From: a virus | Taxonomy: Duplodnaviria; Heunggongvirae; Uroviricota; Caudoviricetes | Strand: one strand, 5' to 3' | IMG/VR virus record: IMGVR_UViG_3300029875_000118 | DNA: 7,493 nucleotides | Part shown: positions 1 to 7,493 of the stretch, in pieces | How the letters are laid out: each line of letters opens with the position of its first letter | How positions within the stretch are numbered: the stretch's first letter is position 1 | Made by a program: the position numbers and the translations under genes | Notes under the pieces: generated by a model | Databases searched by the model: none | Seen by the model: only the letters and a program-made list of their open reading frames with translations | What the model was told of the DNA's origin: nothing

Positions 1-500
1 ATTTCTCCTACTTCCTCGGCAATCAATCCGTAGAATCCCCAGTCACGCCTGTCATTTTCGCATTGCGACCTGTACCACACAGGGCGCATCTTGAAAATGA
101 GATCGGCGTGCTCTGAATCTATCGTCTCTACTGAATGTTTATAGCGAATAGACGATGTTGACCGCAGTACAGACGAAATTGCGGGGTCAGGATTAAGATA
201 AAGATTTGCCGCCGCTGTAGTCGTGGCCAAATTCCATAAATAAAACGCTTCACGACCTGTCAGTGGATAAAAATCTCCCCCATAACGACCGCTTTCCAGA
301 TCATTCACTTCTACTTTGTTTTTGAGCTTATTATCCACTTCAGTTTTTGTGTATCTGGTACTGATATCCTGCTTTGCACTGGTCATATCAGTCTGAAGTG
401 TTGATACTTTTACGTTAATTGAGGAAATATCTTCCTTAGCTTTACTGACATCTCCCTTTAGCGTGGTGATGTCTCCTGGAATTACTGTCGATGTAGCCAT
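1..500 (-). CDS. Tail-fibre-like protein, N-terminal 166 codons (C-terminus beyond the left edge): coiled-coil-like N-terminus followed by a peptidase-S74-like (intramolecular chaperone) motif
   Basis: ATG at 498-500 with SD GGGAGA 4 nt upstream and the preceding gene's TAA stop 9 nt upstream. The frame is open through position 1: MATSTVIPGDITTLKGDVSKAKEDISSINVKVSTLQTDMTSAKQDISTRYTKTEVDNKLKNKVEVNDL...STSSIRYKHSVETIDSEHADLIFKMRPVWYRSQCENDRRDWGFYGLIAEEVGE. The segment 'S-x-R-x-K ... L-x-x-RPV-x-Y ... G(F/L)IA(E/Q)EV' resembles the start of the auto-cleaving chaperone domain found at the C-terminus of phage tail spikes and fibres. The ORF track misses it because it runs off the edge. Confidence 0.6.
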   Translation of the reverse strand, partial: MATSTVIPGDITTLKGDVSKAKEDISSINVKVSTLQTDMTSAKQDISTRYTKTEVDNKLKNKVEVNDLESGRYGGDFYPLTGREAFYLWNLATTTAAANLYLNPDPAISSVLRSTSSIRYKHSVETIDSEHADLIFKMRPVWYRSQCENDRRDWGFYGLIAEEVGE

Positions 501-509
501 TTGTCTCCC

Positions 510-791
510 TTACATCCAGCCACGAATTTGATGATCAATAGCAATTGCGTATTCATCGAATATTGACGGTATTTTGACATCATTAATGATGCGTACGTTT
601 ACAAAATATCCGTCCTCCTTAACACATACAGGATCACCACCTTCTGTTAGTTCGCCTGTTTCTTTGTATACGTCACCTATTACATCAATGAGAACATCGT
701 TCTGTATCATCTCGTCATCATAATAACCAATGCTATCCATAAAGGCCGAAAAGTCTGCCTTGTCTGTGAATTTGATAATTAAATCTCGCAT
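510..791 (-). CDS. Hypothetical small acidic protein (93 aa), translationally coupled to the fibre gene; possibly a fibre chaperone or accessory protein
   Basis: ORF MRDLIIKFTDKADFSAFMDSIGYYDDEMIQ...HQIRGWM. Its ATG (789-791) shares one base with the fibre TAA (791-793) in a TAATG arrangement. A strong SD, GGGAGAGG, lies 6 nt upstream inside the fibre 3' end. About 20 Asp/Glu against 8 Lys/Arg. I do not recognise the family. Confidence 0.65.
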   Translation of the reverse strand: MRDLIIKFTDKADFSAFMDSIGYYDDEMIQNDVLIDVIGDVYKETGELTEGGDPVCVKEDGYFVNVRIINDVKIPSIFDEYAIAIDHQIRGWM

Positions 792-3230
792 TATATTACC
801 TCTCCCATTTGCGCATCGGTTAATTCTTTATGCCATATACGAAAATTACGAATGTGACCAAAAAGATGACGTAGGCCGCTATTAGTCTGCCCCCCAATCC
901 TGAAGAAATAACCAGATTTGACACCGACATGATCCGTGGTTTTAGGAGTTCCATGCTGGGCATTGCTAACGAAATGCACATTACCAGATTCATTTAAAAC
1001 AAATCCAAGAACAGATTTTTGTTCAAATAATACTGGCGATACCGCGGCTACTGTACTACCGTTTTTATTGTACATTGTAACACCAGGAAATAATGTTGAA
1101 CTGATAGCAACACTTATATATTGACCCGGAGTTGTACTCCCACCACTGGTATCAAAAACTCGTGGTGCTGCATTTGGCGTTTCGTTCCAGTTTGTATGAA
1201 CTTCAGCTAGAAATGTTAAAGGTGGTGTACCGATATTGTTATTTGTTGGTATATTCACCATATCACTGGCTCTTGTGACTGGCGTTGCCTCAGTAATAAT
1301 AAACGAAGAAGCGCACGAACCGCCTTCGACCTGAGGAGTTGCAACATAAATATAATCATCTGCACCAGTGCCACCCCCTTTTGGTGGTGCATATTGCACC
1401 ATCGCACCGATCATATTTTCTGTATCAAGTGCCTTAATTGTTGCCTCAAAGAAAATCCATTTGCTTGCTTCATTTTTAACAGCCCTTGCAGTAATACGAC
1501 TTGCAGCGCCGCCAGTTTTATCAATCGATAAATCTGTCATATTTAAGTAAGCATCACCCAGGAATTTGTAGGTAGAGCCATCATATTCTTCAAATCGTAA
1601 TCGACATCTTAAATTTGGAGTCCCACTTTGTACCCTGCATGAGATAGTTACATACTTTTCATCGCCGGTAACATCATATCCTTTGCTTCCAGATACTGTG
1701 ACAATAGAAATGGCTGAGGTTTGCCCCACCATTTCTGGTTTTAATGTGAATTTTGCGTACTGGAAACCAAAATCATCTACACCTGATGTATTTAAAATCA
1801 TATTTGATGACTTGTTCCACTTTGATGGATTTGTGCTGTTTATTAACAGGTTTGTACGCTGCCCTTCAATCAGCAATCCATACTTTTCAAAGCGAGGTTC
1901 ATCGATTGCAGCCTCTGTCAGCACACCAGATTTATTAATATAGGTTGCTTTCGATGCGCGTTTAAACTTTACAATCTTGTCGCCAGGCATTGTTATTTCA
2001 TCGTCGCCAATAACAATCTTTTTATATGATGGCGAAAAGCCCGTAATCATATCCAGTGAATCGTTAAATGGTATCCACACATCAGGAAGCGGCTGTAATA
2101 CATATTTATACGGTTCTGCTGCCTGGCTTGCGTACTCTCTGGCTGCGTCTTCACTTGCTTTAGCTGCTGTCTGGCTTGCAGCGGATGCTTTCGCCGAGTT
2201 CGCCGCCGCAGTCTCGCTCGCCTTTGCGTTGGTTTCACTGGTTTTTGCAGCTTTTTGACTATTTGCTGATGCAGTGGCAGAAGCAGCCGCCGCACTTGCA
2301 GAACCAGCTGCGGCACTCTCGCTTTCAGCTGCTGCATCCTGACTACTTTTCGCCGCAGTTTCACTGGCTTTAGCGTTCGTTTCGCTGGTCTTCGCTGCCG
2401 TCTGACTGGACTTTGCGTTAGTTTCGCTAGTCTTCGCTGCTTTCTGGCTGTTAGCCGCAGCAGTTGCTGATCCAGCTGCTGAAGTCGCAGAACCGGCTGC
2501 CGCGCTCTCGCTTTCGGCTGCTGCATTCTGGCTATTNNNNNNNNNNNNNNNNNNNNNNNNNNNNNNNNNNNNNNNNNNNNNNNNNNNNNNNNNNNNNNNN
2601 NGCCGTCTGGCTGGACTTTGCGTTGGTTTCGCTCGTCTTTGCTGCTGTCTCGCTATTTTTCGCGTTGGTTTCGCTCGTCTTTGCTGCTGTCTCGCTATTT
2701 TTCGCGTTGGTTTCTGATTTTTTGGCTGCTGTCGCGGAGTTTGCCGATGCAGTCTGTGAGGCCGCTGCCGCCTGTGCGCTGTTACCTGCATTCGTCTCTG
2801 ACGTTTTCGCCGCGTTCTTCGATGATGCCGCTGCAGTTTCGGATTTCTTTGCCGCCGCTGCGCTCTGAGAGGCGGCTTCGGCGTTGCGTGCCGCTTCTTC
2901 CACCATTGCCTCAAAACGACGCAATGCCTCCGGCATGACATCCTCTTCCGTCATGGCACCGAGAAAATCATTCAGCGTACCTGGTCTGGAACCTTCATAG
3001 ACGGTAATGGTCCCGGCATGTGAAGGCGGAAAACCTTCAACCAGCAGGATAACGCTGTACTGGCCATACTCAACATCCATACTGTAACGCCCGGCTTCAT
3101 CCGGATTTTCTGAGGCCACCGTGTTTACCACAACCGTGGTGCTGTTACGTTTTGCTTTGAGCTGAATGGTGCAGTTCTGTATCGGTTTTCCTGCACCGTC
3201 TTTCAGCACACCTGAAATCTGTACTGCCAT
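791..3230 (-). CDS. stf: Side tail fibre protein (lambda Stf-like N-terminus and repeat shaft, non-lambda distal domain); interrupted by an N-run with an apparent frame change
   Basis: The N-terminal frame reads (MN)MAVQISGVLKDGAGKPIQNCTIQLKAKRNSTTVVVNTVASENPDEAGRYSMDVEYGQYSVILLVEGFPPSHAGTITVYEG..., which matches the lambda Stf N-terminus as I recall it. GGAG lies 5 nt upstream of the ATG at 3228-3230; the ORF-track start at 3236 sits inside that spacer. Ala/Ser/Thr/Glu-rich repeats (KTSETNAKSSQTAAKTSETNAK...) run into the N-run at 2537-2601. The same repeat protein resumes in a different frame after the gap and continues to a TAA at 791-793, ending ...GHIRNFRIWHKELTDAQMGEVI. The two ORF-track pieces (2532..3236 and 791..2941) are therefore one gene. 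The Arg-rich N-terminal part of the 716-aa ORF (2602..2941) is an off-frame artefact. Confidence 0.8.
2270..2536. repeat. Imperfect long-period direct repeat (about 189 bp, about 63 codons) in the fibre shaft-coding region
   Basis: The segment beginning gcagaaccagctgcggcactctcgctttcagctgctgcatcctgact (from 2298) recurs with a few mismatches from 2487 (gcagaaccggctgccgcgctctcgctttcggctgctgcattctggct). The protein shows the matching repeat ...AAAESESAAAGSA...NSQKAAKTSETNAK... Confidence 0.8.
2537..2601. other. Run of 65 N (assembly gap or masked bases) inside the repeat region of the fibre gene
   Basis: Directly visible. The true coding frame differs on the two sides of the run. Confidence 0.99.
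2620..2703. repeat. Perfect 42-bp tandem duplication (two copies) inside the fibre shaft-coding region
   Basis: 2620-2661 and 2662-2703 are identical (gcgttggtttcgctcgtctttgctgctgtctcgctatttttc), encoding a 14-aa unit of the TSETNAKNSETAAK type. Degenerate copies flank it. Confidence 0.9.
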
Positions 3231-3240
3231 ATTCACTCCA

Positions 3241-3269
3241 CAAATAAAAAAGGCACCATTTCTGGTGCC
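3241..3269 (-). terminator. Rho-independent terminator-like hairpin between J and the side tail fibre gene
   Basis: On the minus strand: GGCACCA-GAAA-TGGTGCC (7-bp GC-rich stem, GNRA-type tetraloop) followed immediately by TTTTTTATTTG. It sits 20 nt after the J stop and directly upstream of the fibre RBS (GGAG) and start. It is probably leaky, since the fibre gene has no room for its own promoter. Confidence 0.55.
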
Positions 3270-3288
3270 CGAATTTGGGTTTTAAAAT

Positions 3289-6200
3289 TCAACTGATACG
3301 GATACCGGCTGTTGATTTCTTCATCACGACAACAAGAAGGTCGCTGATACTGGTCGTTGGCGTCCAGTTATTAGCACCATATGAAGAAACATTGAAAGTC
3401 AGGGTGACATGACCGTGTCCGGCAGGCATATCAATGACGGATGAAAATACCCTGCTGACATCCGTCGCGGGTTGCTGAAAGATTTCCTGTCCGTTCTTCA
3501 GCACCTGCAGCTTACAGGTTGAATACCAGTATGACTGTTGGTTGTTGCTGTTGAAGTTTTCATGCTTACCACCGCGAAACAGAACGGGTGGGATTACTAT
3601 CTGACGGTCAAAAGCCTGGTCATCGTACACAGTGACCGTTATTGTACCGCTGGCATAACTGCCATTTCTCGGAAAGGCTTTTCCCACCGTTTTGACAATA
3701 TCACCTTCAATCTGGTTGGCAGACAGTTTTCCCAGAATCCGACAGTTCTGGTTAATCGTGACATTGTTGAGCGTCCCGGAGTTCGCATTCACGTTACCGC
3801 TGATATCGGCATTTTTCGCCGTCAGCCGCCCGTCCGGTGTCAGGGAAAATACCGGAGGATTGCCGCCGCTGGTAATGGTGGGAGCCGTCAGATACTTCAG
3901 GAACACTTCGTTCATGAATATCTGGTTGCCCTGCGCCACAAACATCGGTGTTTCATTCCCGTTTGCCGGGTCAATAAACGCGATACGATTGGCGGCAACC
4001 AGAAACTGGCTCAGTTTGCCTTCCTCTGTATCCTCCATGCTGAGGCCAAGCCCCGCGACATAATGCTTACCGTCTTCGGTCTGCTCAATTTTGACGCCCC
4101 ACATGGCATTCCATTTATCGTTGGCGTCTTTCCACTCTTTCGAAAACTCATCCAGTCTGCTGGCGTTATCCTCCGTCAGGTCGACTTTTTCCAGCAGCTC
4201 TTTACCGAGATGGGATTCGGTTATCTGGCCTTTGAAAAAATCCAGGTAACCTTCCGCATCATCGCTCGCCCGACCGACGGCTTCCACGAATGCTGATTTG
4301 CCAACGGTGTTCACACTGCGAACGTAAAAATAATAATCATGGCCAGGCTTGATATTGATACTGGCGGCTATCCAGTACAGCGCCGTGCCAAGATAACGCG
4401 CGCTGGTTTCAACCTGCCTGATATCGGTAATCCGCTTTTCCGAGAACCAGAACTCAAACTGTACCGTCGGGTCATAAACCGCAAGATGCGGCGTGGCGGT
4501 TATCTGAAAATAGCCCGGCGTCAGCTCAATCCGCGATGGCGCTGCCGGTGCGGCAATCCGGAACGATACCGACGCCGGATCCCCCTGCTGTCCCCACGCA
4601 TTTACCGCCCGGACTGTCAGCCTGTAGTTCCCCAGCGCCAGTTGCGTGAAGCGGTATGTGGTTTCCGTCGTCCTGGCCGTGCTGACCAGTCGCTCACTGC
4701 CATCGTCCGCTGCCACGGTCAGGCGAAGCAGGAAGCTCACGCCCTTCACCACCTTCGGCGTGTCCCAGCGCGCCAGCACCTGATATTCCCCGCTGTCAGC
4801 GGTGACTTCTGCGGTCAGGTGCTGCACCGCTGGCGGCGTGACACCGTTCACCGTTCCGCTCTGGTCGCCGTCAAAGTGCGCCCCGTTATCCACGATGGCT
4901 TCTTTCTCCGGTACATGCTGCACGGCAGTGATGGCATACGTGCCGTCGTCGTTCTCACGGATACTCACACAGCGGAACAGGCGCTGGCGCAGCGTCGGCA
5001 GCTTCAGCCCCCACACGCTGTACTCGGCAACGCCGTCAGGAACCCGGCTCACTTTCACCTTCACGCCGTCGGTGACGGACTGGACCTCCACGCTGACCGG
5101 ATTCCCCTGCCCGTCAACCAGGCTTATCAGCGTGGTGCCGGAGGATGGCAGCGTGATTTCACGGTCGAGCGTCAGCGTCCGGGTCTGGCGGTTCACCGCC
5201 AGCACGCGCCCGCCGATGCTGATCCCCGCATAGTCATCATCACAGATTTCAATAACATCGCCCGGTACATGGCGAAGCCCTTCGGCACCCACGCTGAAGT
5301 CCACGGTCTGCGTTTCCAGCAGCTCCGTTTTAATCAGCCACAGCCCGGCGCGGTGTGCCTGCCCCCGGCTGGTACAGCCAAAGGCATCCATTTTCGTGAC
5401 GTTACGACCGTAACGGCGAATGGCCTGCGTATCCTCCACAAGCTCTGTCGCCGTCTCCCAGCCGTTATTCGGGTCAATCCAGTTCACCTCAACGGCATTA
5501 TGGCGGTCCTTCAGGGCGCTGAAGCTGTAGCGGAACGGCGCGCCATCATCCGGCATCACCACATTACTGCGGTTATAGGTCCACACCTTATCCGACGGTC
5601 GGTCCTGCACGAACGTCAGCGTCTGCCCGTTCCATACCGGCATACAGCGCATTGCCGAGCAGAAATCACTGAGAACATCCCACGCCTTACGCTGTGTGGT
5701 CAGGTAGGCATTACAGGAAATGCACGGCTCCGTGCCACCAAAACCGTCCGGCACCGACTGGTCGCAATACTGGCCGATGACATACAGCGCCCATTTGTCC
5801 ACATCCGCCGCACCAAGACGTTTCCCCATGCCGTAGCGCGGATGGGTCAGCATATCCCACAGACACCAGGCCATGTTGTTGCTGTATGCTGGCTTAAACG
5901 TTCCGTCCCAGATACCGCTGTATTGCCGCGTCTGCGGGTTATAGTTCGACGGCACCTGCAGAATGCGCCCGCGAAGATGATAATTACGGCTCACCTGCTG
6001 ACTGCCGAACTGTTCCGAGTCCACCTGCACGCCGACCAGTGCCGTGTTCGGGTAGCACTGTTTCACATCNNNNNNNNNNNNNNNNNNNNNNNNNNTGTTC
6101 TGCAGCTGGTCTGTGGTGCTGTCCGGCGTCATCCTGCGCATCCGGATATTAAACGGGCGCGGCGGCAGGTTACCCACCACCACCGAGGCCAGATACTGCG

Positions 6201-6681
6201 AGGTGGTTTTGCCCTTAATGGTGATGTCTTTTTCCGTCACCCAGCCACCGTTACGCTGTATCTGAACCAGCAGGCGGACTTCCGACGGATTCCTGTCCCC
6301 CTTTGAGGTGGTTTCCACCAGTGTCTGCACGCCGAAAGTAAAACGCAGACGGTCAATGTTTGCCGACGTGATGGTCCGGGTGATCGGCGTGTCATATTTC
6401 ACTTCTGTACCGAGCACCGTCTCGGAGCCGGAGGATTCAAACCCCTCCGGCGGAGTCTGCTCCTGCTCACCTGCCCGGAACACCACCGTGACGCCGGAGA
6501 TGTTGGTATTCCCCTCAGTGTCCAGCACTGGCGTACTGTTCAGCAGCACGCTTTTTAATCCATCCACCGGACCGTCAATCGGCCCTTCGCTGATGGCATC
6601 GATCACACTCAGCAACTGCGTGGACTTCAGGTTGTCCTTCGCTTCGCGCGGGGTATGCCCCTTACTGCTGCCTTTACCCAT
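3289..6681 (-). CDS. J: Host specificity protein J (tail tip / central tail fibre, lambda gpJ family)
   Basis: 1130-aa [41 protein letters not shown]...AGIRIS with TGA stop at 3289-3291. GGAG lies about 8 nt upstream of the ATG. The length and sequence over most of the protein match lambda gpJ as I recall it. It contains a 25-nt N-run that keeps the frame (9 X codons). Confidence 0.95.
6070..6094. other. Run of 25 N (unresolved or masked bases) inside gene J; reading frame is preserved across it
   Basis: Directly visible. The J translation continues in frame on both sides (...TDQLQN-X9-DVKQCYPNT...). Confidence 0.99.
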
Positions 6682-6741: not shown

Positions 6742-7389
6742 TCAGCGACCAATCACCACAACCTGACCACCATCACCTTCATCTGCCGTGCTGATCTCCT
6801 GAGATACCACTCGCGACCCCACACGCATTTCACCGTACAGAACGGGCAGAACATTGCCCTGGGCAACCATGTTATCCAGTGACGAGAAATACGTGTTCTG
6901 TTTGCCGTTATCTGTACTGGCTGCCGTGGGCGTCCGGGCTTTCGGTGCCAGCATCTGCGCCACACCACCCAGGATCATACTGGCCCCAGCCGCATACATG
7001 CCCGATAAAGCCGCGGCACCCAGCCAGCCTGCGGGGTTCCACCACGCCACCGCAATCAGCGCCGCACCCAGCACCGCCTGAAAAACACCGCCACTTTTGG
7101 CTCCCGCCAGACGCGGCACGATGTGGATCACTGCACCATTTGCCAGCGGCTCATTAAGACGGGCAGATAATTCGGTTTCACCTGCATCACGCCCGGCAAT
7201 GCGCACCTGATACCAGCCGTCATTCAGTTTCTGACGAAACGCCGGGACCTGTGTGGACAGCGCCCGGATGGCTTCAGCCCCCGTTTTCACACGAAGGTCG
7301 ATGCGGCGGCCAAATCGTTGCAAATCCCCGTAAAGGCAGATGCGTGCCATGCCTGGTGACGCCAGAGGGAGTGTGTGCGTCGCTGCCAT
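6742..7389 (-). CDS. I: Tail assembly protein I (lambda gpI-like)
   Basis: 215-aa ORF MAATHTLPLASPGMARICLYGDLQRFGRR...SQEISTADEGDGGQVVVIGR with a Gly/Ala-rich hydrophobic segment in the middle. An SD-like GAGAGAGG lies about 10 nt upstream of the ATG at 7389. Its position between K and J and the N- and C-terminal sequence match lambda gpI as I remember it. Confidence 0.88.
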   Translation of the reverse strand: MAATHTLPLASPGMARICLYGDLQRFGRRIDLRVKTGAEAIRALSTQVPAFRQKLNDGWYQVRIAGRDAGETELSARLNEPLANGAVIHIVPRLAGAKSGGVFQAVLGAALIAVAWWNPAGWLGAAALSGMYAAGASMILGGVAQMLAPKARTPTAASTDNGKQNTYFSSLDNMVAQGNVLPVLYGEMRVGSRVVSQEISTADEGDGGQVVVIGR

Positions 7390-7493
7390 TTGTCGGTATA
7401 CCTCTCTCGTTTGCTCAGTTGTTCAGGAATATGGTGCAACAGCTCGCCGTCGCCGCAGTAAATGGCGGCATGATTCGGCACCGATGAACCAAA
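7287..7493 (-). CDS. K: Tail assembly protein K, C-terminal fragment (N-terminus lies beyond the right edge of the window)
   Basis: The minus-strand frame is open from the window edge and reads ...FGSSVPNHAAIYCGDGELLHHIPEQLSKRERYTDKWQRRTHSLWRHQAWHASAFTGICNDLAAASTFV, ending at a stop at 7287-7289. The 'HAAIYCGDG' segment fits the His-containing motif of NlpC/P60-type peptidases, and the sequence matches my recollection of the lambda gpK C-terminus. The ORF track shows only the 64-aa piece from an internal GTG. It overlaps gene I by about 103 nt in a different frame, as I recall for lambda K/I. Confidence 0.8.
   Translation of the reverse strand, partial: FGSSVPNHAAIYCGDGELLHHIPEQLSKRERYTDKWQRRTHSLWRHQAWHASAFTGICNDLAAASTFV

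Follow-up and report, generated by a model that had tools for sequence, protein, structure and literature searches.

A short S74-domain protein as a probable minimal distal subunit of a multi-component side tail fibre

This locus raises the question of how a phage comes to encode an S74-type chaperone domain, usually the C-terminal end of its protein, that appears to begin unusually near the N-terminus, and of what such a protein might do. The window (the whole 7,493-nucleotide stretch of Caudoviricetes DNA that was analysed, IMG/VR record IMGVR_UViG_3300029875_000118) carries the gene at its left edge: translation of positions 1-500 gives a minus-strand frame that is open for 166 codons from an ATG at 498-500 and then runs off the edge, leaving residues 1-166 of 234 within the window (1..500, minus strand). 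The segment that first drew attention, STSSIRYKHSVETIDSEHADLIFKMRPVWYRSQ...DWGFYGLIAEEV, lies inside this translation. The gene has its own start signals. A Shine-Dalgarno sequence, GGGAG (505..509, minus strand), stands 4 nt 5′ of the ATG in the 9-nt intergenic gap that separates it from the TAA stop (510-512) of an upstream 93-aa gene, and the same junction of stop, GGAG-like sequence and ATG was found in 7 other phages.

To obtain the complete gene, the locus was extended leftwards through identical contigs, using the complete 93-aa neighbour as an exact-match probe. Six contigs were retrieved, among them a human-gut metagenome scaffold (L017) with 100% DNA identity to window positions 1-2536 and an NCBI genome assembly (L016) that shows 99.8-99.9% identity wherever it overlaps the window and whose 234-aa product contains all 166 window residues unchanged. 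The complete ORF measures 705 nt (234 aa) in both. The preliminary description was therefore right that the window edge truncates the gene and that the motif starts about 115 residues in (residues 113-116); the S74 domain nevertheless occupies residues 116-234 of 234 and is thus C-terminal as usual, appearing close to the N-terminus because the protein is short. Of the two possibilities that the description had offered, a short stand-alone chaperone-like or fibre-like protein is what the completed gene encodes, and an unusual domain order was rejected.

Membership in the S74 family was evaluated at the levels of profile, catalytic residues and predicted fold. The window holds the first 51 residues of the intramolecular chaperone (IMC) domain (residues 116-166; 1..155, minus strand), the other 68 lying outside it. 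Against Pfam PF13884 (Peptidase_S74), the window fragment matched profile positions 1-49 of 58 with residues 116-164 (E=2.9e-4, 21.5 bits), just below the gathering cut-off of 22 bits because the window edge removes 9 profile positions; the full 234-aa product of L017 reached 27.4 bits (E=4.2e-6, residues 116-172, profile positions 1-57 of 58), and the S74-type assignment made from the fragment accordingly passed the Pfam search. The window protein also matched PHROG 3299 (E=6.6e-92). The Ser-Lys dyad that the description had proposed to look for is present as S116-S-I-R-Y-K121. Ser116 (codon at 153..155, minus strand) corresponds to PF13884 position 1 and is predicted to act as catalytic nucleophile and to be the residue with which the released domain would begin; Lys121 (codon at 138..140, minus strand), at Ser+5, is the predicted general base. 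Both are invariant in 14 close and 61 diverse homologues, R113, S114 and T115 are likewise invariant across the diverse set, and alignment places the same S-x4-K spacing in DT57C LtfA.

The best sequence matches in the PDB were the C-terminus of DT57C LtfA (E=2e-7) and then the ICA domain of MyRF; repeating the search with a 14-sequence profile gave a weaker value (E=8e-4) than the single sequence. For fold comparison we used an AF2 model run with the 61 diverse sequences (pLDDT 86-98 over residues 121-230), leaving out a run on the 14 close homologues whose mean pLDDT was 50. The only meaningful structural matches of this model were IMC structures. An exhaustive HMMER search returned 3506 cluster representatives at E<=1e-3; among the best 150 of these, lengths spanned 69-1284 aa (with fragments at the short end), several proteins measured 183-300 aa, and nearly all matches finished a few residues from the C-terminus. 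On profile and model evidence, the protein is a member of the S74 / IMC family. It shares the C-terminal domain (PF13884 / MEROPS S74) with K1F endosialidase (3GW6), the GA-1 neck appendage (3GUD) and the T5 pb1 L-shaped fibre (4UW8); whereas those domains fold large clients (fibres and spikes of ~650-1400 residues, built as triple beta-helices or beta-prisms), the client here has 115 residues and consists mainly of alpha-helical coiled coil. The ICA domain of MyRF (7DC3) is a eukaryotic homologue of the phage IMC but belongs to a membrane-bound transcription factor, an unrelated context.

What precedes the IMC domain can be divided into three segments. Residues 1-15, MATSTVIPGDITTLK (456..500, minus strand), form a motif common to the products of third genes in the fibre cassette described below, and we regard it as a putative docking peptide. 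The consensus N-terminus of these products, M(A/V)TxT(V/I)IPxDITxLK, heads proteins of 231-574 aa in PeterMerian, SECphi27, HMD-P4, KurtStettler and IrisVonRoten (Gp24), and in HMD-P4 (333 aa), KurtStettler (510 aa) and IrisVonRoten Gp24 (574 aa) it is followed by extra domains before the S74 domain. A tblastn search with the motif returned 124 phage records, 17 of them from Bacillus phages and matching through the coiled coil only. More than 20 records were recovered by both of two independent tblastn searches, and in these the start of the motif lies 12-15 nt past the last sense codon of the small upstream gene (9-12 nt past its stop). Furthermore, PHROG 4563 and PHROG 19752 align their own positions 1-32 with residues 1-32 of the protein. 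This conservation could partly reflect a recombination boundary used in cassette exchange rather than a binding role.

Residues 10-51 (348..473, minus strand) comprise six heptads (DITTLKG, DVSKAKE, DISSINV, KVSTLQT, DMTSAKQ and DISTRYT, of the form D-[IVM]-[ST]-x-[LAI]-x-x) and are predicted to form a trimeric coiled-coil stalk. The coiled-coil N-terminus noted at the outset is well founded: 11 of the 12 a/d positions are aliphatic, a count equalled in 0 of 10,000 shuffles. AF2 predicts a helix over residues 11-48, and the segment gives weak matches to the trimeric coiled coils of P22 gp26 and Lpp. As an alpha-helix rises ~1.5 Å per residue, the six heptads would span ~6 nm. Among homologues the coil varies in length by 7, 14 or 21 residues, multiples of 7 that keep both reading frame and heptad register. 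The third segment, residues 52-115 (156..347, minus strand), consists of a YTKTEVDNKLK motif and a tip segment (GGDFYPLTGREAFYLW..TTTAAANLYLNPD..VLRST) and is predicted to stay on the mature protein. This is the only stretch between the coil and the predicted cleavage site; it found no family match and was modelled at a pLDDT of 53-65. Within it T93, T94, A98 and N99 are nearly invariant in the 61 homologues, and ~30 of its residues (roughly 85-115) belong to a segment conserved with thousands of S74 proteins. The ~65 residues available between coil and cleavage site probably leave the predicted mature part too short to hold a recognisable receptor-binding domain.

The gene order of the window places the protein within a side tail fibre locus. 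On the minus strand, a partial K gene (7287-7481) is followed by I (6742-7389) and J (3289-6681), the latter two also identified by Pfam, and then by a proximal side tail fibre gene (791..3236) whose product measures 807 aa in L016. This fibre has a lambda-type N-terminal domain (PF08400, phage_tail_N, E=1.1e-68), Ala-rich repeats, and a C-terminal part with a spike-fibre domain (NF048003, GTA_spike_fiber, 61.9 bits) and a ConA-like lectin domain (Laminin_G_3, E=1.2e-4); its frame is artificially interrupted in the window by a run of N at 2537-2601 and is uninterrupted in L016. The 93-aa gene (510..791, minus strand) overlaps the fibre stop with its start (TAATG) and belongs to phrog_1361 (E=3.1e-40); its product, for which searches of Pfam, NCBIfam, PADLOC and PDB sequences returned nothing meaningful, may be a partner, adaptor or chaperone of the fibre. 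A small gene of ~92 codons directly 3′ of the fibre gene was found in 181-201 phage records. The gene had been described as a second fibre-like gene, and it is indeed one, standing third in a cassette that runs from proximal fibre through ~92-aa protein to S74 protein.

This order was seen in nine annotated loci from four phage groups: lambda-like phages and prophages (IdasGreatGrand, PhiR49_1, PhiR55_1 and E. coli 980-2), T1-like Drexlerviridae (PeterMerian and SECphi27), Seuratvirus (KurtStettler) and T5-like phages (HMD-P4 and IrisVonRoten). All three products are homologous across the four groups. The fibres have phage-specific N-termini and C-terminal ~550 residues that are 46-60% identical, the small proteins are 35-55% identical between groups, and the third-gene products, 231-574 aa long, every one end in an S74 domain. 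The cassette is mobile. Phage 21, mEp460 and Lambda_2E9 carry homologues of the fibre (~50% identity to that of the window) and of the 92-aa protein (45-48%) without an S74 gene, a gene for a 95-97-aa membrane protein directly following the small gene instead. The proximal fibre is therefore independent of the third gene, and the third gene is an optional add-on.

Comparison with longer fibres suggests how the protein was assembled. Long one-piece fibres of 539-1243 aa, among them a lambda-type Stf of 735 aa with a PF08400 N-terminus, have C-termini that share 55-61% identity with residues 45-234, and the whole 166-aa window protein aligns at positions 1147-1323 of the 1385-position PHROG 3299 profile. 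The conserved end-piece starts ~30 residues before the predicted cleavage site (TTTxxAN...RSTS). From these sequence relationships, we therefore read the protein as a fusion of the cassette N-terminal motif with a widely used end-piece of tip plus IMC.

The gene is also common, contrary to the sense of rarity conveyed by the preliminary description: its DNA occurs in 760 of 5426 complete E. coli genomes (14%), and short S74 proteins as such are frequent. In prophage copies a 3′ remnant of tfa lies just downstream, and many copies sit in defective prophages with a pseudogene fibre. Homologues of the same length (231-245 aa, 55-59% identity) are found in ~45 records of virulent T1-like phages (Drexlerviridae). 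Among seven phage and prophage copies, all intact, pairwise dN/dS was 0.12-0.3 and similar in the N-terminal 115 codons and the IMC part; the gene is under purifying selection. Taken with its own ATG and GGGAG, the register-preserving coil indels and its retention in the ~45 T1-like records, this identifies a real gene rather than debris. In six T1-like phage records the gene is in two pieces, by a 1-nt frameshift in orkinos, the one examined, which suggests that it is dispensable on laboratory K-12 hosts.

We consider that the protein is probably the minimal form of a distal (or branch) subunit in a side tail fibre of several components. We infer that it trimerises, cleaves itself, attaches to the fibre and is present in the virion. 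Briefly, three chains would associate via the C-terminal S74 domain (residues 116-234), bringing the coiled coil of six heptads and the small tip segment into register; the Ser116/Lys121 dyad would then cut each chain before Ser116, freeing a 13.8-kDa chaperone piece (116-234) and leaving a 12.5-kDa mature subunit of 115 residues. The N-terminal peptide may hold this trimer on the distal part of the proximal fibre, whose gene lies two places upstream; the 93-aa protein could act as an intermediary. Candidate roles for the 115-residue stub on the fibre are a cap, a spacer or a weak glycan contact. A search of the literature on virion proteomics of proteins labelled “chaperone of endosialidase” yielded only the one-piece S74 fibre of phage SH6, which belongs to another family.

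The closest known arrangement is that of the T5-like phage IrisVonRoten (Bas32), in which Gp24 has been modelled as a “T-shaped” distal fibre on the proximal fibre Gp22, within a Gp22-Gp23-Gp24 lateral module (Humolli et al., BASEL; 10.1101/2024.09.12.612763). There, too, a proximal fibre with a lectin-like C-terminus (galectin-like in Gp22; 10.1101/2024.09.12.612763) is followed by a 92-aa protein and by one that ends in an S74 domain. Gp23 shares 36% identity with the 93-aa protein of the window, and Gp22 is ~47% identical to phage 21 Stf, which is in turn ~50% identical to the window fibre. The N-terminus of Gp24, MVTKTVIPTDITKLK, resembles MATSTVIPGDITTLK, and its S74 dyad reads SDSRLK. 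The two third-gene products differ in what lies between: Gp24 (574 aa) has two predicted receptor-binding domains between anchor and IMC, whereas the present protein has only the coiled coil and ~65 further residues, and their relationship is confined to the first 28 residues and to the IMC domain, which is 26% identical.

A genetic precedent is provided by the T5-like phages DT57C and DT571/2 with their branched lateral tail fibres, where LtfB, the second of two fibre proteins, ends in an S74 domain of its own, docks on LtfA through a conserved N-terminus and is held on the virion via this first fibre (PMC4728585; PMC10713586). Besides giving the best IMC match in the PDB, DT57C LtfA also contains the YTKTEVD motif. 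The differences are that the docking segment of LtfB (45 aa, phiEco32 gp15-like) is dissimilar in sequence to the motif described here, that LtfA carries an IMC of its own while the proximal fibre of the window does not, that no 92-aa gene is noted at the DT57C/DT571/2 locus (PMC4728585; PMC10713586), and that LtfB is a proven receptor-binding protein, whereas the present protein is a putative fibre subunit. The cassette also recalls lambda Stf-Tfa, standing in the same position after J and having a fibre with the Stf N-terminal domain, but neither the 93-aa nor the S74 protein matched the Tfa-type family (lambda Tfa, Mu U, P2 G) in Pfam, NCBIfam or PHROG, and identity as a Tfa-like chaperone was rejected.

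Other explanations can be weighed against a distal subunit. Database labels such as “putative lateral tail fiber chaperone” and “chaperone of endosialidase” (PeterMerian, KarlJaspers, SECphi27 and JK16) imply an assembly chaperone that acts in trans on the proximal fibre and is itself outside the virion; a literature search on “lateral tail fiber chaperone” found no paper. The gene does occupy the position of lambda tfa downstream of stf, the small protein leaves no space for a clear receptor-binding domain, and by Pfam the proximal fibre has neither an S74 domain of its own nor a Tfa-type partner. However, S74 domains act in cis on their own chain in endoNF, T5 pb1 and GA-1 gp12 (PMC4728585), and the protein itself lacks a Tfa-type Pfam match. 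This explanation is further weakened because homologous fibre and 92-aa genes occur without the S74 gene in the phage 21-type loci, because multidomain proteins of 333-574 aa, one of them modelled as a distal fibre, share both motif and slot, and because long one-piece fibres end in the same unit of tip and IMC; we consider it unlikely. A more unusual view, to which we assign a somewhat lower probability still, is that the “intramolecular” chaperone is used intermolecularly: the N-terminal peptide may dock on the unassembled proximal fibre or its complex with the 93-aa protein, and S74 trimerisation may clamp three fibre chains in register before self-removal leaves a coiled-coil cap. Closely allied to it is the notion of a receptor-blind “blank” at a universal docking site, for which larger distal subunits with the same motif, including those from intact copies in defective prophages, may compete; if so, such competition would lead to phenotypic mixing of host range.

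The resemblance of residues 45-234 to the ends of long fibres, and the placement of the window protein near the end of the PHROG 3299 profile, also fit a C-terminal fragment stranded by cassette replacement and hitch-hiking without function, and the locus is a mosaic junction, with the tfa remnant downstream in prophage copies and many copies in defective prophages whose fibre is a pseudogene. Yet such a leftover is contradicted by the start codon and Shine-Dalgarno sequence of the gene, by a 15-residue motif that is missing from the long fibres and common to more than 100 third-position genes, by purifying selection on both halves among seven examined copies, all of them intact, and by the same length being retained in compact virulent T1-like genomes, with coil indels that preserve frame and heptad register; we therefore hold it to be very unlikely. 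Most improbable of all is a fibre-like decoration located elsewhere on the particle, on head, neck or whisker. Weak coiled-coil matches to a “minor head protein” family (PHROG 19577, E=8.7e-6) and to minor capsid proteins of SPO1-like Bacillus phages point that way, as does the domain of the neighbouring fibre that NCBI names “head spike fiber”. The head-protein matches are, however, confined to the heptad segment (residues 9-51), in four phage groups whose head genes are unrelated the gene always comes directly after that of a lateral or side tail fibre, and the motif co-occurs with the fibre and 92-aa genes rather than with head genes. A head fibre was rejected, coiled-coil similarity being its sole support.

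We thus return to a minimal distal subunit as the preferred reading. Fibre subunits ending in S74, lateral fibres built of several parts and the exchange of fibre genes as cassettes are already established, and the gene, annotated in hundreds of genomes, is real but ordinary. A slight novelty lies in placing this short protein at the lower size limit of the series of distal subunits, and in the breadth of phages that have the 15-residue N-terminal motif and the ~92-aa partner in common. Little is added to basic biology, and the practical value is threefold. Annotation, in which the family goes by the conflicting names “chaperone”, “tail fiber protein” and “hypothetical”, gains a consistent reading from the cassette. 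Siphoviruses of the lambda-like, T1-like, Seuratvirus and T5-like groups share both the motif and the ~92-aa partner and, if the motif is a docking peptide, it would offer a ready means of exchanging distal fibre modules from one phage chassis to another. Finally, at 234 residues the protein is about the smallest natural S74 client and may serve as a compact model for chaperone-driven trimerisation and self-cleavage.

The 93-aa gene (phrog_1361), located on the minus strand at 510–791 between the side tail fibre gene and the S74 gene, encodes a protein for which sequence searches of Pfam, NCBIfam, PADLOC and the PDB yielded zero matches. Its homologues are found directly 3′ of a fibre gene in 181–201 phage records, spanning lambda-like, T1-like, Dhillonvirus, Queuovirinae, T5-like and rV5-like phages. 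The fibre stop codon and the start codon of the 93-aa gene overlap as TAATG, a start-stop arrangement that suggests translational coupling of the two genes. The same E. coli/Salmonella-type fibre cassette was also observed in short records named as Listeria or Campylobacter phages (OR847733.1, OR848352.1, MG065676.1 and others), with 92% or 39% identity to the small protein; contamination or mislabelling probably explains these records.

The side tail fibre gene itself is listed as two ORFs (791–2941 and 2532–3236), a split of the frame that is artificial because a 65-nt run of N (2537–2601), within the Ala-rich repeat region, stands in place of 49 nt in L016, a near-identical genome assembly contig used for comparison. 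Tandem Ala/Ser/Thr-rich repeats of the fibre shaft (about 2200–2900, minus strand; for example, KTSETNAKSSQTAA and KTSETNAKASETAA) account for both the strong AT skew over this stretch (−0.3 to −0.65) and the long spurious ORFs in other frames. A second run of N (26 nt, 6070–6095) lies inside gene J. Only 52 nt (3237–3288) separate J from the side tail fibre gene, and lom is absent from this gap; a gene of the lom/ail family occupies the same position in the close relatives IdasGreatGrand, PhiR49_1, PhiR55_1 and E. coli 980-2.

Six T1-like phage records (orkinos and five other Drexlerviridae) carry the S74 gene in two pieces. In orkinos (L015, 1501–2239), the split is caused by one additional C within a C5 run (TTTTTACCCCC) at the FYPLTG codons, which could reflect a sequencing error, loss of the gene on K-12 hosts that lack O-antigen, or slippage. 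The third gene of the KurtStettler cassette (L008, 3789–5321) encodes a 510-aa product that continues beyond the S74 domain for ~200 Gly-, Gln- and Cys-rich residues ending in PTPPTPPTSCC, an extension that is atypical for S74 proteins.

Past the left edge of the window, L016 shows three features after the S74 gene. The first encodes a predicted two-pass membrane protein of 97 aa (5007–5300), which is homologous to phage 21 gp24 and occurs too in phages without an S74 gene. The second, at 5783–7525 on the strand opposite to the S74 gene, encodes a KAP-family P-loop NTPase of 580 aa with similarity to PDC-S49 (E=1.7e-15), a candidate defence protein in PADLOC; the third is the host gene thrS (8263 onward). 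The 93-aa and S74 genes remain intact in E. coli B derivatives and strain E200086, whereas their fibre gene is a pseudogene. Downstream of the prophage copies of the cassette, a tail fibre assembly (tfa) gene has left a 111-nt 3′ remnant (L002, 6362–6472; L011 and L012, both 3362–3472), the scar of an older stf-tfa module that was displaced by the fibre cassette.
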